59,994 bases of DNA from a virus (lineage: Duplodnaviria > Caudoviricetes): the IMG/VR virus record IMGVR_UViG_3300037459_000208, positions 1 through 59,994 of that record; one strand, 5' to 3'. Position numbers and translations under genes: made by a program. Position 1 is the stretch's first letter; each line of letters begins with the position of its first letter. Shown here piece after piece: positions 24,595-59,162 of the stretch. The notes under the pieces were generated by a model, which was not told the origin of the DNA, did no database searches, and saw only the letters and a list, made by a program, of their open reading frames with translations.

Positions 24595-27500
24595 TCAGCG
24601 GGCCTCATCCCCTTCCCCCTCCGTGTGCTCCGCCGTCTCCTGGTTCGCCCCAAGGTTCATCCGCGCCACCCTAAGGGCGGCATCCGCCTGGTCCGCTTCC
24701 ATGTTGGCGATGTCCACCCTCGTGGCCCCCTGGGACTTGATCATCCTGGCCATTTCGGCCACCTGAGCCTTGAGGGATCGCACCTCGGAGACCAGGTCGG
24801 AGCTGTCGCCCCCGGCTGGGGCCACAGGGGCCAGGAACTGGCCGGCGTCGAAACTGACGGTGTCGGCGGGGCTCAGGACCCTCTCGTCGCGCCTCAAGAG
24901 CGCCAGGCCGGTCGACCGGGCGATCCCTCCGGAGTGGAACGTCTGAAGTCCGGAGAGGATCGAGCTCATGGTCCGAAGCTCACCCTGGACGCTGCCGGGT
25001 CCCGTGTTGCGACCGGTGAAGTCCAGCCCTTTGGTCATCTTTGCCTGGATTGAGCCGCCGACGCGGAGGGCGTCCTTCATCGTCCGGAGCTTGTCGATCA
25101 TGGCGGAATTCTCGTTCGTCAGAGCGGCCTCGGTGCCAGCGGTGCCGGCAATGATCGGCTGAAGCGCCGCGACGATCTCGGCGAAGTTTTCAGCCCCAAG
25201 CTGCTGGACGATCGGACCGGCGGGCCCCAGCGCTGCGACGATCTCGCCGAAGTCGAGGTCGGAGAGGTCGATCCCGCTCAGCTGATCAACGAAACCACCG
25301 AAGTCGAGACCGGCCGCGTCGAGCGAGTTGACCAGGTCGGCGAAGGGAAGGGCTCCGATCGCTTCGACGACGTCCGCAAAGATGTCCGCCCCGAGGACGT
25401 CCACGAGGTCGGAGATGGTGGCCTCGACCTGCAATTGGGTGCCGTTGAGGTTCTCCATGAGGGTTGCCAGAAGGTCCGCATCTATGATCCCGCCGCCGAG
25501 GGTCGCGATGCTGGTCTCAAGAGACGAGAACGAGGCAGCCGATGACGCCGCCGTCGGCTGCGCCGCCGTCGTCAGCTCAATCTCCGCCAGGGATGCCGCC
25601 TGAGCCTCCAGAATCTGCCGGTCGGTGGTGACGAGGATGTCGGCGGCCTCGACCTGCTCCAGGGTCGCGAGGATGGCGTCAAGGATCGGCTGTGTACCTG
25701 GTCCGGCCCCGAAGCGCTCGATCGTCTCGGTCCTGAACGCTTGCGACGCATCAGCCAGAGCTTCAAGCGCTTCGGCCCTTTGAGCGTTCGTCAAGGACTC
25801 GTCAAGCGCCGTCGCGGCGAGCTCCTCGAATCGCGCCTGGGCTTCGTCGAAGACGACCTTGTTGGACGGCGCCGTGAGATTCCTCAGAGCCTCGATTTCC
25901 TGGCGGATTCCGACCTTCAGATTCTCCTCGATCGCGTCCGACGCGAGGACGAGCCGGTCACCGGCATCGGCGAGAGCATCGGCGCCAGCTCCGACGATCA
26001 TCAGGCCAGCGACGACGTCGACGAAGCGCTCCTCGACGTCGTCGAGGGCGGCGGCGGAGGCGTTTAGAGCTTCGGCCGGACCGATCGCGTCGAGCGCCGT
26101 CTTGACGAACTCCGCCCGGGCGACCGCGAACGCGTCCGAGACCTTTGAGAGATCGAATCCGGCGCGGCTGGCCTTATCGCTGACGTCCTTGAGCTGCTGG
26201 GCCAGGGTTGCGGCCGACGACGCCGTCGGGCCGAGGCGCGCGCGCCTGAAGCCCTCAAGGATCCCTTCTATGTCCCTCCGGGCAGCCGACAGGTCGCTCG
26301 CCGAGGACCTCGCCGACCGCGTTCCGGTCCTTCCCCCGGGCACCGTGCCGGGGCCTCTCGTCGGATCCGTTGCCGTCGGTCGGCTCAATCGGGCAATGGT
26401 GTCGTCGATGAGCCGGCCCAGTGATCTCGACAGGGCTCCGGCCGCTTCCAGCATTTGGCGCGCCAGGATGAGCTCGGCTGTTTTGAGGGCTATGGCGATC
26501 TTTCCTTGCCGCGCGGCGATTCTGGCAGCTTCTGCGGTGTCTCCAACCCGCTCCGCCTCCGACCTCGCGAGGGCGAGTAGGGGACCAAGGACTTGATCCC
26601 GGACGGTCCTGCCGATTTGGCCAAGGCTCAATCCGAGCTTGTCCGCATTCTTGACGAGGAAGTTGATCGTCTTCACGGTCTCTTTGCCGGTCTCGTTGAG
26701 CTTGCTCAGAGCCCCACCGAGTCCCTTCAGGGCCGCCTTCCCGAGCGCTTCGAACTCTCGTCGCGTCGTCTCGCGGATGTTTTTCTTCGCCTCGCGGGCT
26801 GCGTCCGGGGAGAGATCCTCCCGGATTTTGACGTCCTCGATAGCTGCCGTCCGACGCTGGCCGATGTCTCTGACGGCGCCCTCGAGGTCGGAGGCGCGGA
26901 ACTGCGCGGCAGTGGTCTCCCAGGCGTCTCCCAGGGCCAGGAGATCGACGTCGGCCATGAGGCGGAGGCCCTCGGCGACCCCTTGGGTCCCGATCCCGGC
27001 CTCGGCGGCGAGATCGCGGAACTCTTCCACCCGGTCGTTCCAGGCTTGCTGCTCGGCAGACGTGGCGCTCAATTCCTGGCGGAATCCGAGCATCGCCTCG
27101 GCGAAGGACTCGGCGGCCGCCTCCGCCTCTCTTCTTGCCTCCTGGCGACGGCCACGGCCACCGCCCCGCTGTCCAGCAAGACCGCCGCCGGCCAACAGCT
27201 TTGCGAGCGCCTTATCCGCATCCGCCACGACCGCTTCGAAGAGAGCACGCGTCGCCCCGACCAGTAGCCCCTCAACTGCCAGAAGTTCTCGGGCGGCCTG
27301 GATTTGTTGAAAGAGAGCAAGCTGAGCATCAAGGGCGGCAAACTTTTGCAACTCGGCAGCCCCTACCTGAGCTCCCAAGACTTCCTGGGTCAGACTGATC
27401 AAACTTTTGCCCAGGCCCGACGCGGCCCCTTTCGCGGCTGCTTCGATCAAGGCCGGATCGATCGCAGCCGGGATGTCTTCGAGCGCTGCTGCGACCAGAA

Positions 27501-30500
27501 TCATGTCTTTTTCGACGTCCGTCATGGAGTCGTGGAACGAATCCGCGCCCTCAACTACCGATTCCATACCCTCGGCGACACGGTTGGCGGCGTCGTCTGC
27601 GAGCTCTCCGGTTCCGGTCAGGGTTTCATGTAGGCCAGATCCTGGCGTCCCGATGGCTTCACCGAGAGCGGTGACCCCAAGACTTCCTGATTCGCCGGAT
27701 CTACCAAGAGCGATGATGTCATCCGAAAGGCCGGTTATGGAAGAACCGGCCTCATCGCCACCCTGAATGATTCCACCGCCACCGCCACCGCCGATGCCAC
27801 CGCCCGCGGGACCAGGAACCCCGCCGAGGGGAAGCTCACCGATTTTAGTTCTCTGTTCCTGATCATCGGCTGCTTTTTGGATCGCCACGAGCTCTCTCTC
27901 TCGTGCCGCGGTTTCTAGATCCAAGGCTGCGGCAAAGGACGCTGCCTCTTCTGTCATTTTAATAAGTGCCGATATACCACTGTTAAACCCCGGTATAAAT
28001 TGCCCAAGGCCTTGTTCTATGTTCGCCCTGATCGCCTCTAATTCTTCGTTTCTAAGAATGATCAGCTTCTCAAACGCCGGACCGAATCCTGAACCAACGT
28101 CCAACATTTCTCCCAGCTTTTCACGCATGATGGAAAATTGAATGCCGAGATCTTCTACTAGTCTCGCCGCGTCCGCCATCCCGGCCTGATCTATCAATCG
28201 TGCGAAGTTTAGATTCTCACGAAGCTCGTCAAGATCGACGTTCTGCGTAGCGCGACTCAATACCGCTGCCACGGTGTCCCCGATTCCTCCGAAAGTTCCA
28301 CTCTTTACTTGCTTGGCGAGAACTGCCGCGATAGCTTCATCAGCGGTGTCGAAAATACCGATAAGTACGCCGGCGACGGAGGCTTCTACGGCCTTACCGT
28401 CGTTTCTTATTCGCAGCTCAATCATCGGCAATTCTTGAATAAATCCACCAGCGGCTATCCTGATTGAATCAAGGCCATCCGCCAGGCTTTTTAGTATTTT
28501 TTGCGCCTGTAGGTTCTCGGAAGCATTCTGGACCTCCGTGGTCGTCAGAAAGCCACGTTCGTTGAACCGTCCCTGGGGACCAACTGCGAAACCAACGCTG
28601 CCCGAGAATCTTTTAAGTTCCCTTTCGGATATTATGTTTTTCACAGCCGAGAAGAGAGCGACGAAGGCACCAATGACCGGCAAAGCGGTGGCCAGGACCG
28701 CTCCGGCTTGCGCTCCTTGGCCCCCGCCACCCCTACCGGCGGCTCCGATTGAACCGAGTGCGCCTATTGCAGCCCCGGCCCCGTCTCGTCCGTCCGCCCG
28801 ACCTGCGCCCGGTCGACCTCCGACTCCGGATGTAAAACCTCCAAGGACCTGAACGAAATCAAGTGCCTTGTCGATCAAATCGCCGATGTCGGAATCTATC
28901 TTCCCGATAAGATCAGCTATCCCCGCGGCAGCGGACTTGACTTGTTCGGTCTTCTCGATCGCTTCCTGGGCAATTATCTTCATCGACCCGAACGTCGACC
29001 CACCGGTTATCGGATTACCCTGAGGATCCAACCGTTGGAGACCGGGCTGAAAGCCACCAGGGAGAAAAGACGGAGAGATTGCCGAAGCAGGAATGACGGA
29101 ACGCAGCTTGAGTTGACCGCTGGCGACGTCAACCAGAGCCTTCGCGAGAGCCTTGGCTCGTTCTTCTTGTTCGCCGAGAAGATCCGTTAGACCGCCCGTG
29201 GCGTCGCCGGCGGCGCCGGCAATCTGAGGCGCCTCAGATTGAACGTCGAGGAGGTCTTCCTGAGAATCCTTGGCTCCGACCTGGGCTGTCGCGAGGACGA
29301 GGAATCCGGTCTCGAGCTCTCGGAGGTCACTGGCCATGGCCAAGATCGGGGCCCCCGTGCCTATGGGGGCGAATTTCGCCACGGCCTCCAGGGTGCTCGC
29401 GAGCTTTCCGAGCTGGACGCTCGCGAGGACCGCCAGGAGCTTCGGCAGGAGCGTCAGCTGCTTTATCGGCTTCGTGAGCCGGTCCGACAAAATCTTGAGA
29501 CCGACGGAGACCAGAGTTGTGATACCGGGTATTTCCTTCAACCCTTCGCCGAAGTCGCGCCAGGCTCCGATGAGGTCGGCGGTGTCCCTCAGGAGTTCGG
29601 ACATCGGATCGGAAAGCGGCCCGATGCCGTCGGCGAGCAGGAGCCGAAACTGATTCGTCAGACGCTGGCCGTCGGAACGAAGGGTCGAGAAGGCCGCTGC
29701 CGCCTCCTTGTTCAGGGCCGTGTTCTCTTCGGACGCCTTGCTCGAAACCCTGAGCCGATCGGCAACGCGGTCAGCGTTGACAGCCATGGGTAAAAGCGCT
29801 TTCGCCGTTCGCTTACTCGCCAGGCCAACTTTTTCGAGCCCAATAGAACTACGCTCCCCGAGCGTACCGAGACCTTTCAAAAATTGCAGCGCCGCGTCCG
29901 CGATGCTCCCCTCTGCCATGTCCCGAAGCTCGTCGGTGGTGACTCCGGCAATCAACGCCAGATCTTCGAGTCCTTCCCCGGTCTCGCGAGCCTTTAGGAG
30001 AGCTCCGAAAAGATCGAACAGGGCGGAGCCGACCCCCTCGGCCTTGGCTCCCATTTCCGCAAGGGCTGCTGCGAATCCTAATGTAGCCGATGCGCCGAGG
30101 TTGAAGTTTGCCGTTGACCGGGCGATCTCGTTTGCAATCGGCAAAATCTCTGCTTCCGTCGCTTTAGACGTATTCCCGAGCTTGGTCAAAGCCGCGCCAG
30201 CGTTGTCGATCTCGTCAATGGATTCTCGATTGATCGCCAGGATGCGCGCCAATCCCTTGATGGCGACATCACCGGCAAGGTCCGTCGCGGCCGCCAACTT
30301 GGCCCCGGTCGTGGCGGCGTTGGCGAGCCCGGCCTCGGTCTCGATACCCAACTGTCCAGCGACGGCCGCGAGCTCGATCAGGTTCTCGGTCGCGATGGGA
30401 ATCGGACCCGTCGAAAGCTCTTCCAGTCGATCGACAAGACGGGCGAGACCCTTGTCCCCGAGGTCGTCTGTCACCTTGCGGAGGCTGACTACAGCGTCCT

Positions 30501-31164
30501 GGAGGTCCGCAAACGCGTCGATACTCCCGAGGGCCAGCGCCCGGACCGCCCGAAATACCGACTGGATTCCGAAGTAGGCACCTACCAGAAGGGCGGCCTT
30601 TTTGGCCAGATCAGATATGGCCAGACCGTGGCGGACAGAGGTCTTGGCGGCCGATCTCTGTGCAGCGGTGAGCTCCAGAGTCTCTTTCTGCGCCCTGTCT
30701 AGATCCCTGGCGAGGTCTGCGCCCTCTTTGCCGAGCTTGCCAAGGTCATTCCCGTACGCGCGCGCGGCGGCCCCGGCCGCGCGCGCCGAGACGTCACCCC
30801 GCTTCATCAGGATGTTTGCAGCCTCTTGCTTTTTGGCCAAGAGGGCGAGCTTGTCGGCGGCGGACTTCGTGTCCCTCTTGTTACCGCGAAGCCCTTTGCC
30901 CCATTGCTCCGAAGCTTTTCTTATGGCCTTGAGCTCCTCGACGACACGGTCAAGGGACGTCTCAAATTTTTTTGTCACAACCTCGGAGGAACGAATCTCG
31001 TCAAGGATCCCCGACAGGCTATTCCTCGACTGCCGTCCGACCATGTCGTAAGCCTTCCCGACCTTTATAACGTCCGCATGCCACTTCTTCGCAGCCCTGA
31101 CGCGGGCTTGCTCTTCACGGGCAACCTGCGAGGTGTCGATTTCCAGAGGGATAACGGCAGGCAT
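24595..31164 (-). CDS. Tail tape measure protein (TP901-like core)
   Basis: 2189 aa, Ala-rich helical; LAAVAGQLGI...LTKLGN..KATEAEI core; C-terminal FHSGG...ALLRRDERVL; follows the chaperone genes. Confidence 0.95.
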   Translation of the reverse strand: MPAVIPLEIDTSQVAREEQARVRAAKKWHADVIKVGKAYDMVGRQSRNSLSGILDEIRSSEVVTKKFETSLDRVVEELKAIRKASEQWGKGLRGNKRDTKSAADKLALLAKKQEAANILMKRGDVSARAAGAAARAYGNDLGKLGKEGADLARDLDRAQKETLELTAAQRSAAKTSVRHGLAISDLAKKAALLVGAYFGIQSVFRAVRALALGSIDAFADLQDAVVSLRKVTDDLGDKGLARLVDRLEELSTGPIPIATENLIELAAVAGQLGIETEAGLANAATTGAKLAAATDLAGDVAIKGLARILAINRESIDEIDNAGAALTKLGNTSKATEAEILPIANEIARSTANFNLGASATLGFAAALAEMGAKAEGVGSALFDLFGALLKARETGEGLEDLALIAGVTTDELRDMAEGSIADAALQFLKGLGTLGERSSIGLEKVGLASKRTAKALLPMAVNADRVADRLRVSSKASEENTALNKEAAAAFSTLRSDGQRLTNQFRLLLADGIGPLSDPMSELLRDTADLIGAWRDFGEGLKEIPGITTLVSVGLKILSDRLTKPIKQLTLLPKLLAVLASVQLGKLASTLEAVAKFAPIGTGAPILAMASDLRELETGFLVLATAQVGAKDSQEDLLDVQSEAPQIAGAAGDATGGLTDLLGEQEERAKALAKALVDVASGQLKLRSVIPASAISPSFLPGGFQPGLQRLDPQGNPITGGSTFGSMKIIAQEAIEKTEQVKSAAAGIADLIGKIDSDIGDLIDKALDFVQVLGGFTSGVGGRPGAGRADGRDGAGAAIGALGSIGAAGRGGGGQGAQAGAVLATALPVIGAFVALFSAVKNIISERELKRFSGSVGFAVGPQGRFNERGFLTTTEVQNASENLQAQKILKSLADGLDSIRIAAGGFIQELPMIELRIRNDGKAVEASVAGVLIGIFDTADEAIAAVLAKQVKSGTFGGIGDTVAAVLSRATQNVDLDELRENLNFARLIDQAGMADAARLVEDLGIQFSIMREKLGEMLDVGSGFGPAFEKLIILRNEELEAIRANIEQGLGQFIPGFNSGISALIKMTEEAASFAAALDLETAARERELVAIQKAADDQEQRTKIGELPLGGVPGPAGGGIGGGGGGGIIQGGDEAGSSITGLSDDIIALGRSGESGSLGVTALGEAIGTPGSGLHETLTGTGELADDAANRVAEGMESVVEGADSFHDSMTDVEKDMILVAAALEDIPAAIDPALIEAAAKGAASGLGKSLISLTQEVLGAQVGAAELQKFAALDAQLALFQQIQAARELLAVEGLLVGATRALFEAVVADADKALAKLLAGGGLAGQRGGGRGRRQEARREAEAAAESFAEAMLGFRQELSATSAEQQAWNDRVEEFRDLAAEAGIGTQGVAEGLRLMADVDLLALGDAWETTAAQFRASDLEGAVRDIGQRRTAAIEDVKIREDLSPDAAREAKKNIRETTRREFEALGKAALKGLGGALSKLNETGKETVKTINFLVKNADKLGLSLGQIGRTVRDQVLGPLLALARSEAERVGDTAEAARIAARQGKIAIALKTAELILARQMLEAAGALSRSLGRLIDDTIARLSRPTATDPTRGPGTVPGGRTGTRSARSSASDLSAARRDIEGILEGFRRARLGPTASSAATLAQQLKDVSDKASRAGFDLSKVSDAFAVARAEFVKTALDAIGPAEALNASAAALDDVEERFVDVVAGLMIVGAGADALADAGDRLVLASDAIEENLKVGIRQEIEALRNLTAPSNKVVFDEAQARFEELAATALDESLTNAQRAEALEALADASQAFRTETIERFGAGPGTQPILDAILATLEQVEAADILVTTDRQILEAQAASLAEIELTTAAQPTAASSAASFSSLETSIATLGGGIIDADLLATLMENLNGTQLQVEATISDLVDVLGADIFADVVEAIGALPFADLVNSLDAAGLDFGGFVDQLSGIDLSDLDFGEIVAALGPAGPIVQQLGAENFAEIVAALQPIIAGTAGTEAALTNENSAMIDKLRTMKDALRVGGSIQAKMTKGLDFTGRNTGPGSVQGELRTMSSILSGLQTFHSGGIARSTGLALLRRDERVLSPADTVSFDAGQFLAPVAPAGGDSSDLVSEVRSLKAQVAEMARMIKSQGATRVDIANMEADQADAALRVARMNLGANQETAEHTEGEGDEAR

Positions 31165-45769: not shown

Positions 45770-47473
45770 TCACATGTCTTCGATGAAATTGTGAAGTCGG
45801 GTCGGTTCCGGCTCCTTCGCGGCGGTTCCCCCGGTTGCTCCGACGAACCACTCGCCGCCTGATACCTTGAACGCGTTGAAAAGAACGGCCATCGCGTCCG
45901 CCAGGTCGTCCTGACCCCCGGGCTCACCGGTGAACAAGTGAAGCCGATCGGCCGCCATTTTGTTCCAGGCGCCGGAAAGGAACAGAACCCCCCCAAATCC
46001 GTCACCGTCTGGATCCGGGCAGGCGCACACACCTTGTGTCGTGAACATGTTAACTGATTCGGACGGTACCATAAGTTTTCCGCATCGACGGCACTTCGCG
46101 GCGGCTTTCTGTGCGTGCTGGAGGGAGCGTGAGCGCTTTGGCTCCCTCTGGGATGCGAGATGAACAGTTATTCCGAGTCGTTCGAGATCCCCCTTCAGGC
46201 GTTCGCTGAACGCCTTCCCTACGGCTGGCTCATTGGGCAAAACCTGCTCCACACCCTTCCCGTCCCCGGTTGCGGTGTCAATCACCAGCTGCGCAAGGGC
46301 GGCGGCCGGAGGCGAGTACTCGACAGCGGACTCCCATAGCCACCTGTCCCCTACCGCACCACCGAGCGCGGATGCCGTCTTGTCAGACCCTCCCGCGTTG
46401 AAGTCCCACCCTCTGCCGCGACGCGTGGGCGCAGATATTATGCCGTCCTTGACGAGCTTCAGGACGGCATCGTAGGTCGGCAGATCAGCCAGTCCCACTC
46501 CGATAATCTGGTTCCACGCTTCGCAAAAGACGCCTCCGCCGGCGTTCTTCTCTGGCCGCTGGGAGTCGACTGCGTCGTAAAGCCTGGGATTGGTCCTGGC
46601 CCGGTCGTCGATTTGGACCATCACTGAATCTTCCTGGCAAAGCGGCTCTCCTGGGGACCTTGGATCGGGTAGGACTTGGCATTTCTCCGGGAAGGAAAAC
46701 GCCTTGATCGGAGCGTATCCAGGAAGGCAAAGAACGGTCCATTCCTCGAGACCGTAATTCTCCAGCCAGACCTCGATCCTGCCCCATAGATCACCGATTG
46801 CTAACCGTTGATGCATCAAGATTTGGCACGGGTTGCGTCCGGACGCGCTGGCCTGGGCGCGCATCTTCCAATCGTTTTGCCACCACTCCCAAACCGCAGC
46901 TTGAACTAGCGGGGATTGTGCCGACTCGAAGCTCTTAAACGGATCGTCGATCACCCCAAGGTCCCATCCGAAGCCGAGATTTCCGCTCGCGACGGTAACG
47001 GCTCGGAAAGTCCCTCCCTCTCTCGTTTCCCAAAGGTTGACCGCGCTCGAATCTCCTTTTAGTTTAACCCCTGATCGGATGAGCTTGGCCCGGGCGTTTC
47101 TCGAGTGATACCTCAGGAGTGTGTCCTCAGCGCAGCTCAGGTACATCTTCGACCGCGGCTCGTTCCTCATTCTGCACGAAGGAACCCCCTGCGCGACGAT
47201 CCGTGACTTCCAGGACCGCGGCGGAGCCATAATGACAAGATTTTCTACCTCTCCGTCGAGGACGGACTGGCAAGCTTCGATCATCGCCCCGACGTGCCAC
47301 CAGTTAAGATGCGGACCAGGGTCCACTTCCTGAAGGTGCGCGCGCAGAGATACCCCGGTCGCCCCTGTAGGCCGTTCGTCCACCGTTGTCCTTGTTCTGG
47401 CTGCCAGGTAGTCGCGAACCCCAAGTTTTATTGCTGGTATCATCTCTCCTTCGTCGCGCCCCACCAGTCGCAT
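45770..47473 (-). CDS. terL: Terminase large subunit
   Basis: Walker A MAPPRSWKS, Walker B GVIDDP, nuclease RGWDF...DKTA and QDDLADA. Confidence 0.93.
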   Translation of the reverse strand: MRLVGRDEGEMIPAIKLGVRDYLAARTRTTVDERPTGATGVSLRAHLQEVDPGPHLNWWHVGAMIEACQSVLDGEVENLVIMAPPRSWKSRIVAQGVPSCRMRNEPRSKMYLSCAEDTLLRYHSRNARAKLIRSGVKLKGDSSAVNLWETREGGTFRAVTVASGNLGFGWDLGVIDDPFKSFESAQSPLVQAAVWEWWQNDWKMRAQASASGRNPCQILMHQRLAIGDLWGRIEVWLENYGLEEWTVLCLPGYAPIKAFSFPEKCQVLPDPRSPGEPLCQEDSVMVQIDDRARTNPRLYDAVDSQRPEKNAGGGVFCEAWNQIIGVGLADLPTYDAVLKLVKDGIISAPTRRGRGWDFNAGGSDKTASALGGAVGDRWLWESAVEYSPPAAALAQLVIDTATGDGKGVEQVLPNEPAVGKAFSERLKGDLERLGITVHLASQREPKRSRSLQHAQKAAAKCRRCGKLMVPSESVNMFTTQGVCACPDPDGDGFGGVLFLSGAWNKMAADRLHLFTGEPGGQDDLADAMAVLFNAFKVSGGEWFVGATGGTAAKEPEPTRLHNFIEDM

Positions 47474-47489
47474 ACCATGTCCGACGCTA

Positions 47490-48407
47490 TCAGAATCCGG
47501 CGAATCCGGCATCGAGCTTGATAAGGAACAGGACCGCCAGGTCGGCCTGAACCTCATTCTGATTCTGCGCGATCACCTGTATGTCAGCCATCAACGGGAG
47601 CGGGAACGGGTCGGCCGGCAAGGTTATGATGGGCTGGGTGGAGTCCTTGTTCCCCGTGAGCTCTATCAAAGGTCTCCAGCCATAGTTTAGAAGCCACCGG
47701 CGCACCCAGAATTGGCCGGCAAGGTTTCCGCCCATGCCCCCGTCCTGCTTGGAAAATGTTCCAGCTACGGCCAGGACAAACTCCCGCCGGCTGCCCCCGG
47801 TCGTCCAGAACGCCACCTCTGACCGTACTCTTCCCGGAAGGATCCGGGTGATGGTGTTACTGCCGATCGTCACGGTGATGATGCCCTCCGGCGTTCCTCC
47901 CGGCGGATCAGATGCCGGGACGCCGGATTCCCCCGTCTGGAAGATCCTCACCCTCCTCGTCCCGGTTCCCGCCAGCGTCGTGCCGATCGGGAGACCTGTA
48001 AGCGCCACCCCGTCCACCACGGTCCCGAAGACGAAACCATTGACCGGCGTCGTCCCGTTCAGCGGTAGCGTTTGCGTGAGGATGGGGAAGTCCGTGTTCT
48101 CCAACCCAGGCGGGTTTTCGTAGAGGACCTGAAGAAGCACCTCCCGAGCTCCTGACCCCCCCGCGGTGTCGTTCGCCGAGGACGACACGACCGACAACTG
48201 TCCCGCGGCCGTCGGGAACGGGTCGCAATCACCAATCGCGTCACCGAGGAGCCGGTTGTTCGCATTGCTCCCTTTGACTCGGCCGGTGACTGCGAAAAAG
48301 ATTTGGGCGTCGGCCCAGGACACGGAAAGGGCCGCGACGAGCAGCAGCGATGAGACGATTCTGCGTGCAAACTTCCCGCCGTCTTCCCGTTGGTTGCCAA
48401 ATTTCAT
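47490..48407 (-). CDS. Probable virion-associated or exported beta protein
   Basis: Signal-like N-terminus; VVSSSANDTAGGSGAREV...LNGTTPV motif seen in phage structural regions. Confidence 0.7.
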   Translation of the reverse strand: MKFGNQREDGGKFARRIVSSLLLVAALSVSWADAQIFFAVTGRVKGSNANNRLLGDAIGDCDPFPTAAGQLSVVSSSANDTAGGSGAREVLLQVLYENPPGLENTDFPILTQTLPLNGTTPVNGFVFGTVVDGVALTGLPIGTTLAGTGTRRVRIFQTGESGVPASDPPGGTPEGIITVTIGSNTITRILPGRVRSEVAFWTTGGSRREFVLAVAGTFSKQDGGMGGNLAGQFWVRRWLLNYGWRPLIELTGNKDSTQPIITLPADPFPLPLMADIQVIAQNQNEVQADLAVLFLIKLDAGFAGF

Positions 48408-55052: not shown

Positions 55053-55385
55053 TCAGAGTTCAAAGTCGACCCCTTCCGCGGCCTCTAGGCGTTCGCCGAT
55101 CACCCACTCCTCGATGTCGATCTCGGCTTCCTCCAGTTCGCAGCCTGTCTCACTGATTAAATCATCCTCGACTTGGTCGGCCTCTTTTTGGGTAGCCTTG
55201 ACGGCGAACACGTGGCCGCGCGCCGTGACCAGGAAGACCTTGGGCGGTTCGTCCTTCGGCATCTCCGCCAGCATCCGAACGATTTCCCCCGCCACCATTT
55301 GGAGCCCGTAGTAGGACATGCCGGAATCTTTCATCCTTCCCCTGATCCACGTCGCCAGCGTCGCGAGCGCCTCACGGTCGGTCAT
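55053..55385 (-). CDS. Hypothetical protein
   Basis: GGAGG RBS; ATGA coupling to the MTase. Confidence 0.7.
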   Translation of the reverse strand: MTDREALATLATWIRGRMKDSGMSYYGLQMVAGEIVRMLAEMPKDEPPKVFLVTARGHVFAVKATQKEADQVEDDLISETGCELEEAEIDIEEWVIGERLEAAEGVDFEL

Positions 55386-56476
55386 ACTACCTCCCATCGG
55401 AGTGTGTCAACGCCTGAAACCTGACACAGTTTTCGGAAAGCCATTGCGTAAACGAACGGGACCTGTCCGTCCCCAAGGGCTTCAATGCGCTCCACTCGGT
55501 CGGCCACCCCATGAGCCACTCTACCCAAGTCGGGTTCAGCGGGCCACCTGGGATGACTTCCTTCAGGTCTCGACCGCGACGCGCCAGAAGTTTCTCCCGA
55601 TCCTTGAATGCCCCGCCCGTACCGTCGCTTCTCTTCGGTGTCGGGAAGCTCTCGGCGTAAGGCTTGCGGAGCACGCCGTTCCCCGCCGTCCGGGCTTGCT
55701 CCTGATCCTGGATCGTCAGCATCGAAGCGGTGGGGGTTGGGAACCCTTTTCTCCTCAGACGCAGAGCGTCTGACTCCCGGATACCAATTACCGCCCCGAG
55801 GAGAGTCAGATTTCCCCTCTGATGTATCCTCGATGTTCCGGCGTCTGCCTTCTTCGGGGTGGGCCATCTCCTCGACATCGTCTCCAGGCTTGGCCTCCCC
55901 CGGCTCGCCACGTTGTTCCCCGTTCCATTCCCCGAGCTCCCGTACCTCGCGACGGAAGGGGTCGGGAACTCCGCGACGTGTGGCCAAGATCCAGAGGCGG
56001 TCCCTTTGGTGAGGGGCGCCGACGGAGGACGCTGAAATGCAATCCCAGACCGCATCATACCCGCTCTCGGCCAGGTCTCCGAGAATTCGTCCAAAGTACC
56101 AGTGAGCAAGGAGAGCTGGTACGTTCTCCAGGAAGACGATTCCCGGTCGTACTTCGCGAATGACCCGAATGGTGTCGGGCCACATGTTTCGACTGTCGTC
56201 CTCGCCTCGTCGCTTTCCGGCGGCGGAGAACGGCTGGCAGGGGAATCCTCCGCTGATGATGTCGACTCGTCCGCGCCATTTGGTCCCGTCGAATTGGCGG
56301 ACGTCTCCGAATATCGGGAATTCGGGGAGGAATCCGCCCCGTTGGCGAGCTCGGAGTACGTCCTGGCGGTACTGGATCCACTCGACGGCGCAGACGCACC
56401 GTTGCCCGATGAGCAACCCGCCGAGGATTCCGCCGCCAGCCCCGGCGAAAAGTTCAAGCGTCCGTTTTCCATTCAC
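55382..56476 (-). CDS. dcm: DNA cytosine-5 methyltransferase, alpha polypeptide (motifs I-VIII, X)
   Basis: ELFAGAGG, GGFPCQ, LENV, PHQRDR, RIEALGDGQVP. Confidence 0.95.
   Translation of the reverse strand: MNGKRTLELFAGAGGGILGGLLIGQRCVCAVEWIQYRQDVLRARQRGGFLPEFPIFGDVRQFDGTKWRGRVDIISGGFPCQPFSAAGKRRGEDDSRNMWPDTIRVIREVRPGIVFLENVPALLAHWYFGRILGDLAESGYDAVWDCISASSVGAPHQRDRLWILATRRGVPDPFRREVRELGEWNGEQRGEPGEAKPGDDVEEMAHPEEGRRRNIEDTSEGKSDSPRGGNWYPGVRRSASEEKRVPNPHRFDADDPGSGASPDGGERRAPQALRRELPDTEEKRRYGRGIQGSGETSGASRSRPEGSHPRWPAEPDLGRVAHGVADRVERIEALGDGQVPFVYAMAFRKLCQVSGVDTLRWEVV
55387..56472 (-). CDS. Cytosine MTase beta polypeptide in the overlapping frame (motif IX)
   Basis: 361 open codons; four (F/W)PTP repeats; LNPTWVEWLMGWP. 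Confidence 0.75.
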   Translation of the reverse strand: MENGRLNFSPGLAAESSAGCSSGNGASAPSSGSSTARTYSELANGADSSPNSRYSETSANSTGPNGADESTSSAEDSPASRSPPPESDEARTTVETCGPTPFGSFAKYDRESSSWRTYQLSLLTGTLDEFSETWPRAGMMRSGIAFQRPPSAPLTKGTASGSWPHVAEFPTPSVARYGSSGNGTGNNVASRGRPSLETMSRRWPTPKKADAGTSRIHQRGNLTLLGAVIGIRESDALRLRRKGFPTPTASMLTIQDQEQARTAGNGVLRKPYAESFPTPKRSDGTGGAFKDREKLLARRGRDLKEVIPGGPLNPTWVEWLMGWPTEWSALKPLGTDRSRSFTQWLSENCVRFQALTHSDGR

Positions 56477-56931
56477 TACTCGCCCGATCTTTCCCGCCGG
56501 ATTCCGCGTAGGCTGTCATCGCCAAACTTAAAAGCGTCCCATCTCCCGCGGCAGACGTCGACCTGGTGTTGTTCGAACGTCACGAACGAGCGCAGCTTCC
56601 TTCTTTCTTGCCGCGCCCACTCAATCTTCCCCTCAAGGTCGACGACGTGAGCCAGGCAACCGCCTTCGATCTCCGTTCGGATCACGGCCTTGTCTTCCTC
56701 GCACGCCTTCGCTTCTTCCGTCAGCCGGTTGACCGAGTCGTTAGCAAGGACGTATCTCGTCTGTTCGTCGCCAAGGTCTCTGCCGAGATTCGCCACCTCT
56801 TCCTCGAGAGATGCCACCTCAGCTTCCAGGGTTCCGACAAGGTCGGGGTCGGAGCCGGCGCAACCCCCAAGGGTCAGAGCCAAAAGTGGAAAGATAAACG
56901 CTATCCAATTAGTTTCCATTTTTCGTTGCAT
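56476..56931 (-). CDS. Coiled-coil lipoprotein
   Basis: Lipobox LGGC; heptad repeats; AAGGAG RBS. Confidence 0.75.
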   Translation of the reverse strand: MQRKMETNWIAFIFPLLALTLGGCAGSDPDLVGTLEAEVASLEEEVANLGRDLGDEQTRYVLANDSVNRLTEEAKACEEDKAVIRTEIEGGCLAHVVDLEGKIEWARQERRKLRSFVTFEQHQVDVCRGRWDAFKFGDDSLRGIRRERSGE

Positions 56932-56969: not shown

Positions 56970-57248
56970 TTACCACGACACCACTTCAATCGTCGATTGA
57001 CCACTCGGAGAGTAAAGCCTGATTTCGCCACCGCGACCGGATACTTGATCACGAACCATGTCGAGCGCGTTCAGGCGGTCCACGGGAGTCCCTCCGGCCT
57101 GCGCCCACTCGAGGGACGCGCGAACGTCAAAGGTTTCGACCCACAAGAGAGGCTTGCCCTGAGTATCGACCGAGACCCAAAAGTCCGCGGAAGAAAAAGT
57201 GTCCCCTTCGCGCCGGTACTGGGCGATGACTTGCAGTCCACAGATCAT
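56970..57248 (-). CDS. Hypothetical protein
   Basis: ATGA coupling. Confidence 0.55.
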   Translation of the reverse strand: MICGLQVIAQYRREGDTFSSADFWVSVDTQGKPLLWVETFDVRASLEWAQAGGTPVDRLNALDMVRDQVSGRGGEIRLYSPSGQSTIEVVSW

Positions 57249-57958
57249 TTCTTATCTGACCACCATTTGAGAACTGCGTCAAACTCATCACTGATACCCG
57301 GCGCGCGCTCGTCAATCGCGCCGGCCAGCTCTCCGAAAAGTACCATGACTTCTCGCGTGACGATCAATTGGGTTGCCGCGTCCAACCCTAGAAGCTTGCT
57401 GAGGCGAGCGCTGATTTTCTCCAACCTGTCAATGCATTGAAGCCTCAGCTCTGGGTTGTCCTTTGCCGACAAGAGTATCGCAGTCACAATCCTGGTGCGA
57501 TCCTCCGCCCGTGCCGTTTCGATGTCCGTCCACTTTTCGATAAAGCCTTCTGTGTCAGCTGCCCATTTCCTAAGAACCTTCGCCTTCATGCGGCAAGCCG
57601 CTGCGGCTGATAGGCCCGGGTTATCGTTGGCAATCTGTCTTAGAGTGAGACCAGACAGGGTTCCCTCCCAGACGATCAATTCGTGCTTCTTCCTGATAGC
57701 CTTTCGCTGAGCCTTCAAAGCGTTTTGGTGGTCTGAGGCTTTCGGGTCAATGTCTCCTGTTGTTCGGTGGTGCCGCTCGTTCCACGCTTTCTCCACCCTC
57801 GTGAAGATTGCTTCGAGCTCATCGGGCTCAACATTCAGATCGTCCGCAAGGTTGTAGATTGCTCTCCCGGGCGACGATGCAAACCTGACCACATTCGTGA
57901 CCTGATTGTTGCCGATTGCGCTATCTTCGATTGCTGTTCTTTCGTTTTCCATGTTCAC
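57245..57958 (-). CDS. HTH protein of terminase-small-subunit type (copy B)
   Basis: LSGLTLRQIA...LSAAAACR HTH; CIDRLEKISARLSKLLGLDA; C-terminus shared with 57955..58452. Confidence 0.7.
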   Translation of the reverse strand: MNMENERTAIEDSAIGNNQVTNVVRFASSPGRAIYNLADDLNVEPDELEAIFTRVEKAWNERHHRTTGDIDPKASDHQNALKAQRKAIRKKHELIVWEGTLSGLTLRQIANDNPGLSAAAACRMKAKVLRKWAADTEGFIEKWTDIETARAEDRTRIVTAILLSAKDNPELRLQCIDRLEKISARLSKLLGLDAATQLIVTREVMVLFGELAGAIDERAPGISDEFDAVLKWWSDKK

Positions 57959-58452
57959 TTATTACTGGCCATCCATTCCATGACTGCGTCAAACTTCTCT
58001 TTAATCTCCGGTGCGCGCTCATCAATCGCCGCAGCTATTTCTCGAAAGACATCACCGGCCATGATGTGCGCTTCAATGGTCAAACGATCCTTCTTGCCCC
58101 AACGCTCTGGATATTTCCTTTCGAGGAAGGTCATTGCCGCTTGCCACGAGTCGTCCATGTGGACACGTACTTTCGACACCGCGTATTCCTCGGCGGTCGC
58201 AATGGCTTCTTTTACGTCCTCAAAGAACTCTAGATAAATTAGCTCTCCGTCTGGGACCCTTTTCCCCGAATTTCTCAGGGCCAAGGCTTCCTCTCCTCTC
58301 CCCTTCCAGTTGAAATAGGTCTGCTCGGATATAGCCGATTTCATCCACGCGATATTCTCGTAATTTCCTTCTTTGATGATGTCTACGATCTTATCGTGGC
58401 GTTGCCGGGTAAGCCGGGTCGGCTGTCCGGGTCCTCGTTTTTTCTTAGCCAT
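57955..58452 (-). CDS. terS: Terminase small subunit (copy A)
   Basis: GQPTRLT...IVDIIKEGNY...ISEQTYFNW...YLEFFEDVKEA...WQAAMTFLERKYPERWG. Confidence 0.8.
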   Translation of the reverse strand: MAKKKRGPGQPTRLTRQRHDKIVDIIKEGNYENIAWMKSAISEQTYFNWKGRGEEALALRNSGKRVPDGELIYLEFFEDVKEAIATAEEYAVSKVRVHMDDSWQAAMTFLERKYPERWGKKDRLTIEAHIMAGDVFREIAAAIDERAPEIKEKFDAVMEWMASNK

Positions 58453-58608
58453 GATTCCTCCGGTGGGTTGAAGCGCTTGGCCATGGCAGGGATTGACGCG
58501 TCAGAACTTCGTCCCATTCACCACGAAGTCCGCAGTCCATACACCTGCGTCCTTCGCAAGTGTGGACGATCCTGTCGAGCGGATGAGGGCAGTGCTTTTG
58601 ATCCCCGG

Positions 58609-58812
58609 TCATTTCTTGTCCGCCATTTCCCCCGCGGCCAAATCTTCCGCGATAGACGAAACGCTGTATCCCGACCTACCGGACTTGTCAATCAACATAG
58701 CAATCCTGGCCGATAAAGGAAGCGGTGCTCTTGACGGGAATGAGACTCCACAGTAAAGACACCTGCGGTTGCTGTAGTCGCCAGTCCTTTGACAGTCTGC
58801 ACATTTGATCAT
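58609..58812 (-). CDS. Small zinc-finger protein
   Basis: CADC...CLYC. Confidence 0.55.
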   Translation of the reverse strand: MIKCADCQRTGDYSNRRCLYCGVSFPSRAPLPLSARIAMLIDKSGRSGYSVSSIAEDLAAGEMADKK

Positions 58813-59162
58813 TTCTTCGTTCCTTTCGGGTACGGTATTCTTGGACATCCGGCGCAAACTCCCCACGAGTCGAGCTCCCTGTCCCTATCGCAGATGATGC
58901 ACCGGACGACCCTTCTCATCGCACAGACCTCTTTAAGTGGCGACGGACCGCCTCGAGGACGTCGCTGTCTTGCGTCTGGTCCAGGCAGTCGAGGCACATC
59001 CACCGGACGTCAAGAGGATCGCCCCGGAACGCTGCGCCGTACAGACGAACCGACGGAATCCCCGGCCAAGTAATCTTCCTGCACGGGAAAGCGTTGCAAG
59101 GCTGCGCCGATCTACGACATACGATCGAAGCAGAAATGATCAAAACGTGCTTCCCGGGTTCT

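Follow-up and report, generated by a model that had tools for sequence, protein, structure and literature searches.

Why should a phage encode two small terminases of unrelated families, one directly after the other, and end both on the same C-terminal tail? The question is raised by the IMG/VR virus record IMGVR_UViG_3300037459_000208 (Duplodnaviria; Caudoviricetes), whose 59,994 bp were analysed in full and are called the window here; they make up a complete phage genome with direct terminal repeats, 127 bp being common to both genome ends. Near the end of the window two minus-strand genes, referred to as A and B, encode proteins that match different families of small terminase (TerS) and have homologous last 31 residues. 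We find that this tail has diverged under selection and has a mosaic origin, and we regard it as an even call that A and B are two DNA readers of unrelated TerS families, each plugging through its tail into one partner, probably the large terminase (TerL).

Small terminases choose the DNA that is packaged, and this choice governs both transduction and how satellites hijack phages. The connection between TerS and TerL is poorly resolved, structures of the P22 holoenzyme being of low resolution only, according to PMC13595956. If our explanation is true, two unrelated TerS cores with one tail are a natural experiment that separates the adaptor from the DNA reader, and the shared tail indicates which residues to mutate; recognition subunits would then be exchangeable or stackable through tail grafting, which would help to engineer packaging specificity. 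The component elements of such an arrangement are already known, and what differs here is the presence of two unrelated TerS-type proteins in tandem, in one phage, with one common tail.

Two tandem genes share a C-terminal tail

The two genes and their tails are placed as follows.

57955..58452, minus strand: gene A, 165 amino acids, ATG start and TGA stop; assigned to TerS of the phrog_4102 / Sf6-gp1-like type
57245..57958, minus strand: gene B, 237 amino acids counted from GTG; phrog_645 type, assigned as a second TerS-type protein
57958..58050, minus strand: tail of A (last 31 residues), modelled as the end of a long helix, a proline kink and a short terminal helix
57248..57340, minus strand: last 31 residues of B, its tail, homologous to that of A

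At the junction, which reads ...AATAAGTGAACATG..., the GTG start of B overlaps the TGA stop of A as GTGA. The database gene call for B (P0001, 235 amino acids) begins at an ATG two codons inside the GTG start and, judged from the reading frames, the two genes are tightly coupled whichever of these starts is used.

An earlier reading of the locus from sequence only had described this overlap together with a common tail on otherwise dissimilar proteins, and each part of that description holds. The last 31 residues of A and B are identical at 17/31 positions (55%) without a gap, BLASTP of A against B gives an E value of 2e-9, and none of 200,000 shuffles of the tail of B came up to the observed BLOSUM score or to 17 identities. 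When the whole genome was searched in six frames with B, the result was B itself and the tail of A (E 9.1e-7) and nothing else. By contrast with the tails, the cores of the two proteins are not related at the level of their family profiles, which hhalign pairs with a probability of 1.4%. The same value rules out paralogy of A and B over their whole genes.

The nucleotide sequences of the tails suggest how long the two copies have been apart. Eight of the 17 identical residues are encoded by different codons, nucleotide identity is 62/93 (67%), and over the 31 codons the proportions of synonymous and nonsynonymous differences (pS and pN) are 0.66 and 0.25, respectively, which points to an old divergence under purifying selection and bears out the earlier suggestion, drawn from the codons, of selection at the protein level. 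Recent gene conversion of the tails is ruled out by the 67% nucleotide identity and by the pS of 0.66.

In both predicted structures the tail starts as the last part of a long helix, bends at a conserved proline and finishes in a helix of about 15 residues; in the model of A the helices concerned span residues 120-146 and 148-163. This acidic segment of about 31 residues lies at the extreme C-terminus, past the oligomerisation core, and the part of A that aligns with a TerS core stops at residue 121.

Comparison with the closest homologues, P0004 for A (63% identical, encoded on another contig of 911 nt) and P0002 for B (on a contig of 2,572 nt), shows that tail and core do not share one history.

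A versus P0004: tail 16/31 identical; core 86/133 identical
B versus P0002: tail 8/29 identical; core 85/137 identical (62%)
A versus B: tail 17/31 identical; cores unrelated

P0004 is the sole A-type relative that keeps the tail of A; the distant A-type proteins (P0005, L003 and L004) lack it or have an unrelated one in its place. The tail of P0002 has equal length and retains the proline, and its sequence is much diverged. The earlier reading named a tail that is not conserved in homologous pairs as a refuting outcome, and the result goes half against it: conservation of the sequence is found on the side of A, and on the side of B only the shape is kept. As the tail of B is nearer to that of A than to that of P0002, in spite of cores that are 62% identical, its origin is mosaic, and to judge by these alignments the tail looks like a grafted module maintained by selection.

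A and B match different small terminase families

The assignment of A is the more direct of the two. A matches phrog_4102 ('terminase small subunit') over residues 3-142 with an E value of 2.7e-27. Its AlphaFold2 model has a predicted local distance difference test (pLDDT) score of 81.9 and, among 48,161 chains, the top solved fold is the Sf6 TerS (3hef_A; Z 7.1, root-mean-square deviation 4.4), aligned over 91 residues within model residues 11-121, with the runner-up row at Z 5.5. This match is consistent with an N-terminal helix-turn-helix (HTH) and a helical oligomerisation core in the predicted structure of A; Foldseek placed A against 3hef_A at an E value of 2.3, which is not significant. 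Residues W103, A105, L110-E111-R112-K113, P115, W118 and G119 are invariant among five A-type sequences. Gene position agrees with the family match: the A-type relatives in the IMG/VR contigs L003 and L004 sit directly upstream of TerL, and in Arthrobacter phages the match of A runs into the annotated TerL in 3/5 rows. Distant relatives of A stop shortly past the conserved ...LERKYPERWGKK motif or bear unrelated tails. The family match, the predicted fold and the gene position of its relatives place A among the small terminases of the phrog_4102 / Sf6-gp1-like type, and it is predicted to form a ring and to bind the packaging start site.

B is a more distant case. It matches phrog_645 with E values of 2.8e-7 in one profile scan and 1.7e-9 in another, and an exhaustive HMMER search with B across 1.84 billion representatives yielded 15 proteins with E <= 0.001, of which only two reached E <= 1e-30, namely the record of B itself (P0001) and P0002, a full-length homologue with 60% identity. 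Nine of the ten relatives of B that were scanned match phrog_645 as well, with E values as low as 1.5e-30. B opens with a private N-terminal region (residues 1-75), continues with an HTH and a long helical hairpin that has KLLGLD at its end, and closes with the shared tail; it keeps the entire HTH-plus-hairpin core of the phrog_645 family, and within the motif L189, G191 and D193 are nearly invariant among 15 B-type sequences. The AlphaFold2 model (pLDDT 80.8) places helices at residues 78-101, 106-112, 118-164, 169-189, 192-218 and 222-236, laid out as an HTH, a 47-residue helix, a return helix and two tail helices. Both motifs singled out in the earlier reading are thus present, the WxAAxxxLERxxPxxWG-type residues in A and KLLGLD in B, and its view that the two proteins come from different TerS-type families, phrog_4102 and phrog_645, is upheld. 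An NCBIfam scan of A, B, P0002 and P0004 gave nothing meaningful.

That phrog_645 is a small terminase family is argued by the position of its members, most of which lie beside TerL where a TerS gene is expected. The family member P0011 matched 32 phage records, and in five of the six lineages inspected (Gordonia SchottB, Arthrobacter JaNo, Thermobifida P1312, Microbacterium Leaf and Streptomyces ZL12) the phrog_645-type gene is immediately upstream of TerL; SchottB gp1 carries the annotation terminase small subunit. We also located 50 bacterial and archaeal loci with a degenerate DNA pattern of the phrog_645-type family motif, which falls inside an open reading frame (ORF) at 44/50. A same-strand ORF of >=150 amino acids begins <=500 bp downstream of 31/44 of these; the other 13/44 have no such ORF, and 3 of the 13 are at a contig end. 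Counted per family, with no union given, 12 of the 31 downstream ORFs match TerL phrog_2, five TerL phrog_38, three phrog_5909 and three phrog_7579, which makes at least 12 of them TerL by profile match and probably 17 or more, as no TerL that was checked matched both phrog_2 and phrog_38. BLAST with 18 TerL queries against the bacterial loci placed TerL adjacent in ten cases and at 2.1 kb in one.

Structural comparison was less informative for B. The comparison with TerS structures proposed by the earlier reading gave Sf6 TerS as the best solved fold of A by Z score, and for B the Foldseek matches to TerS came no further than E values of about 1. In the BFVD viral structure library, six of the 30 best rows bear the name 'Terminase small subunit', with E > 0.001 in every case, and one viral cluster among the Atlas look-alikes of B goes under the name putative terminase small subunit, which we take as a lead only. 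The sole match in a PDB sequence search with B has an E value of 1.5, at chance level. We therefore conclude from family membership and gene position that B belongs to a TerS-type family, with a putative TerS fold. Further searches with B added no relatives: tblastn against 50,697 phage records had no match, IMG/VR scans with B and with TerL returned nothing, and metagenome scans with the alignments of B and P0002 and of A and P0004 gave pattern matches among which no relative was confirmed.

The name attached to phrog_645 needs comment. Despite its 'Rnase E' label, none of 11 phrog_645-type proteins (B and ten relatives) has an RNase E/G catalytic domain in Pfam; five of the ten relatives match HTH families at or below the Pfam cut-offs, and the others match nothing significantly. 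On this evidence the label is probably wrong, a propagated annotation error. It is present on RefSeq genes of Ribeye, TA17A, PrincessTrina, Lymara, Colucci and DrYang, the GenBank versions of which read HTH DNA-binding or hypothetical protein. At three of the bacterial loci (L035, L038 and L039) the phrog_645-type gene is followed by an ORF of 160-167 amino acids, which is not of TerL size.

The pairing is rare

The earlier reading knew of no phage with this arrangement, and our searches agree that it is rare. A hidden Markov model of the A family matched 0/2,721 ORFs on the 50 bacterial loci, and none of the 44 B-type genes has an A-type neighbour in the flanks that were fetched. Full-text searches of the literature turned up no paper that describes a single phage with two different TerS genes. 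Elsewhere, both TerS families occur with both types of TerL.

The nearest complete relative has no pair either. The TerL homologue P0022 (58% identical) lies in a complete IMG/VR phage of 60,611 bp, G001 in what follows, which has a single A-type TerS of 239 amino acids (phrog_4102 at 3.3e-25) with an N-terminal extension and an unrelated C-terminal tail; searches for B and for phrog_645 found no match anywhere in G001. Its TerS lies about 6 kb upstream of TerL, with a C5 methyltransferase directly before it. A separation of TerS from TerL is accordingly a trait of this lineage, since about 6 kb lie between the two in G001 as well.

Private N-terminal extensions were seen in members of both families. 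The G001 TerS (L011 1366..2085, minus strand) has about 70 extra residues with a CxxC, and the B-type protein P0007 (237 amino acids) has an N-terminal extension with a CxxC; the 75-residue region of B itself is helical.

A candidate partner for the shared tail

If the tail is an adaptor, a partner common to A and B should be found in the same genome, and TerL is the candidate that we favour.

45770..47473, minus strand: TerL, 567 amino acids from the methionine at 47473; the open frame extends to 47557
47348..47473, minus strand: N-terminal 42 residues of TerL, hypervariable and a candidate segment for docking of the tails

TerL matches phrog_4758 (6.5e-23) and phrog_38 (3.7e-22) and has homologues at 40-58% identity. 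Its first 42 residues are identical at only 3/30 to 8/31 positions in seven homologues, versus 205/497 to 309/512 for the remainder in all eight, the eighth (P0025) having no N-terminal segment. Between G001 and the phage studied here the TerL N-terminus agrees at 3/30 positions and the remainder at 309/512, and the TerS tail differs too. In P22 and lambda, the C-terminus of TerS binds the N-terminus of TerL, as described in PMC9611059 and PMC6739421. We read the tail as a TerL adaptor because of this analogy, the hypervariable TerL N-terminus and the difference of G001 in both elements, and by the same analogy the hypervariable N-terminal segment of TerL is the most likely common partner of the tails. 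A complex prediction of TerL with residues 190-237 of B scored 0.00 in both runs, which were made without controls, and speaks neither for nor against binding.

The mechanism that we propose would then run as follows. A, with its Sf6-gp1-like HTH and helical core, and B, with another HTH and the KLLGLD hairpin, would be translated in a coupled manner and would each assemble a homo-oligomer of its own. The tail would serve as an exchangeable adaptor that plugs either oligomer into the N-terminal segment of TerL, so that one packaging motor would be served by two different DNA readers, which might cooperate at a two-part packaging start site or confer two packaging specificities. A mixed ring of A and B, one of the outcomes put forward by the earlier reading, appears less likely, since rings are built by central cores and those of A and B are unrelated; in solved TerS structures it is the central helical core that forms the ring, according to PMC9611059. 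A more specific version, in which two interchangeable readers start packaging at two kinds of site (the phage's own genome and a second class of DNA, or the halves of a composite site) with the tails as portable adaptors that let phages swap or stack such subunits, is one to which we give a rather low probability.

Several observations weigh against docking of both proteins on TerL. The binding of the tail to TerL is argued here from analogy, and the covariation between tail and TerL N-terminus comes from the single comparison with G001; 9.7 kb separate TerL from B, and the absence of B from G001 means that B is dispensable in that lineage. The closest homologue of B has a much diverged tail, and the estimate of dN/dS for the tail is based on 31 codons only. 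As regards B as a terminase, P74-26, G20c and Sf6 TerS are among the top 15 Foldseek rows at non-significant E values of 0.9-1.2, and a wide structural search with its model found generic helical hairpins only. The phrog_645-type gene of Mycobacterium TA17A, the remaining one of the six lineages, does not adjoin TerL, and what follows the phrog_645-type gene at several bacterial loci, such as L033, L042 and L050 (contigs of Thermoleophilia metagenome-assembled genomes), is an ORF of about 352 amino acids, not the size of TerL. With some of its genes away from TerL, the family may include DNA-binding proteins with other roles; loci with a non-TerL ORF of conserved size may be a second non-canonical context or split terminases.

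Alternative explanations

The best-supported alternative turns the tails towards each other: they would bind one another and not TerL, in a helical bundle that ties the oligomers of A and B into a hetero-complex with altered DNA specificity, as with Rpp and TerS. Translational coupling of A and B favours co-assembly, and each model shows the tail as an amphipathic unit of two helices. There is also precedent, in that a hetero-complex of Rpp and lambda TerS with a nascent four-helix bundle switches DNA specificity (PMC6739421) and a C-terminal helix in phage E217 has been proposed to link TerS oligomers (PMC9611059). This explanation leaves unaccounted for that the tail is kept in the closest homologue of A and is absent from distant A-type TerS, and self-association and docking on a partner are in any case compatible with each other; as a replacement for TerL docking we consider it doubtful.

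B might instead be a regulator or decoy, that is, a TerS-derived DNA-binding protein that competes through its copy of the tail for the partner of A and so times or limits the terminase, or that is mainly a transcription factor. The HTH of its relatives resembles sigma-70 region 4 and generic HTH domains, at or below Pfam cut-offs, clusters resembling extracytoplasmic function (ECF) sigma factors are among the Atlas look-alikes of B, and B has its private N-terminal region; moreover, some phrog_645-type members are not beside TerL, and G001 manages without B. Most members of the family nevertheless hold the TerS position and B retains the full HTH-plus-hairpin core, and we think a role as regulator or decoy unlikely.

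We give still less credit to an evolutionary leftover, in which, following horizontal acquisition, one of the two TerS is taking the place of the other, the tail having been grafted to suit the resident motor and one gene being redundant. A, B and the gene upstream form a patch of low GC content (0.506, 0.535 and 0.519, versus 0.613 for the genome), G001 has one TerS only, and replacement should be easy given that elsewhere each TerS family is found with either type of TerL. Against this stand the intact frames of both A and B, the existence elsewhere of the 60%-identical full-length homologue of B, and synonymous sites near saturation in tails whose protein sequence is conserved, which argues for long selection on both.

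Chance similarity of the tails, or an assembly artefact that duplicated a segment, has a negligible probability, being already refuted by the E value, by shuffles that never matched the observed identity, by P0004, which bears an A-type tail on another contig, and by the codons, as tails identical at 62 of 93 nucleotides with eight synonymous codon differences are not a duplicated read or contig end.

Genomic surroundings of the pair

The genome from about 24.6 kb to its end is one long minus-strand block that includes TerL and both A and B. B ends 9.7 kb upstream of TerL and does not itself adjoin the gene; A ends 10.4 kb upstream, likewise away from the position directly before TerL. Repeat, promoter and terminator scans around the pair gave nothing above chance, and hence no candidate packaging site was found. 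A genome scan for tRNA genes found none.

Next to B lies a further small gene.

56970..57248, minus strand: ORF of 92 amino acids whose ATG overlaps the TGA of B as ATGA; possible third coupled gene

A, B and this ORF may constitute a coupled trio. The GC content at its third codon positions (GC3) is 0.656, similar to that of neighbouring genes, and it has no PHROG or Pfam match. After it follows a lipoprotein-like gene (56476..56931; a signal peptide and Cys, judged from the translation). The low-GC patch extends over 57245..58866 and takes in A, B and an 85-residue gene upstream; it fits either horizontal acquisition or the Lys/Glu-rich composition of its products.

A C5 cytosine methyltransferase gene (55382..56476, minus strand, 364 amino acids) has a Pfam match that covers its N-terminal half only. 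Its counterpart in G001 has 246 amino acids (L011 2082..2822, minus strand) and, inspected by eye in the translations, the extra length of the protein in the window is a charged low-complexity middle stretch. In both phages the strand that carries the methyltransferase gene has another frame open across nearly the whole gene (361 amino acids here, 239 in G001), with no Pfam match in either. The methyltransferase adjoins the TerS genes in both phages, on opposite sides, and Gordonia phage SchottB has a C5 methyltransferase too, two genes past TerL.

Elsewhere in the window, the start of TerL is overlapped by a gene for a protein of 305 amino acids with a signal-peptide-like N-terminus (47490..48407, minus strand), for which no family match was found, and an ORF of 2,189 amino acids lies at 24595..31164 on the minus strand.

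Comparison with known systems

Two small terminases with different DNA specificity that serve one TerL are found in Staphylococcus aureus, where the TerS of S. aureus pathogenicity islands (SaPIs) stands beside that of the helper phage. Those are homologous TerS proteins on two conflicting elements, whereas A and B belong to unrelated families and are encoded in tandem, coupled and in one genome.

Phage-inducible chromosomal islands (PICIs) belonging to the Escherichia coli cos type offer a second parallel. Their satellite-encoded Rpp mimics the DNA-binding domain of TerS and binds TerS itself, so that here too a second small DNA-binding protein alters which DNA is recognised, as set out in PMC6739421. 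Rpp differs from what is proposed for B in having no copy of a TerL-binding tail.

For the tail, the closest likeness is to lambda gpNu1 and P22 gp3, in which the oligomerisation core is followed, at the extreme C-terminus, by a short segment that links the reader to the N-terminus of TerL (PMC9611059 and PMC6739421). The segments have no sequence similarity to the tail described here; in addition, one and the same segment is found here on two unrelated proteins of one phage, and its docking is proposed by analogy with these systems.

Among solved structures, Sf6 gp1 (PDB 3HEF) is the best fold for residues 11-121 of A, at 15% identity, and nothing in the aligned part corresponds to the 44-residue helical extension of A (residues 122-165); the stalk of Sf6 TerS is a beta-barrel, according to PMC9611059. 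B, finally, has its HTH, long hairpin and KLLGLD in common with the phrog_645 proteins of actinobacteriophages such as SchottB gp1. Those are encoded by single genes directly upstream of TerL and have unrelated C-termini, whereas B is encoded 9.7 kb from TerL, comes after another TerS and bears the tail of that TerS.

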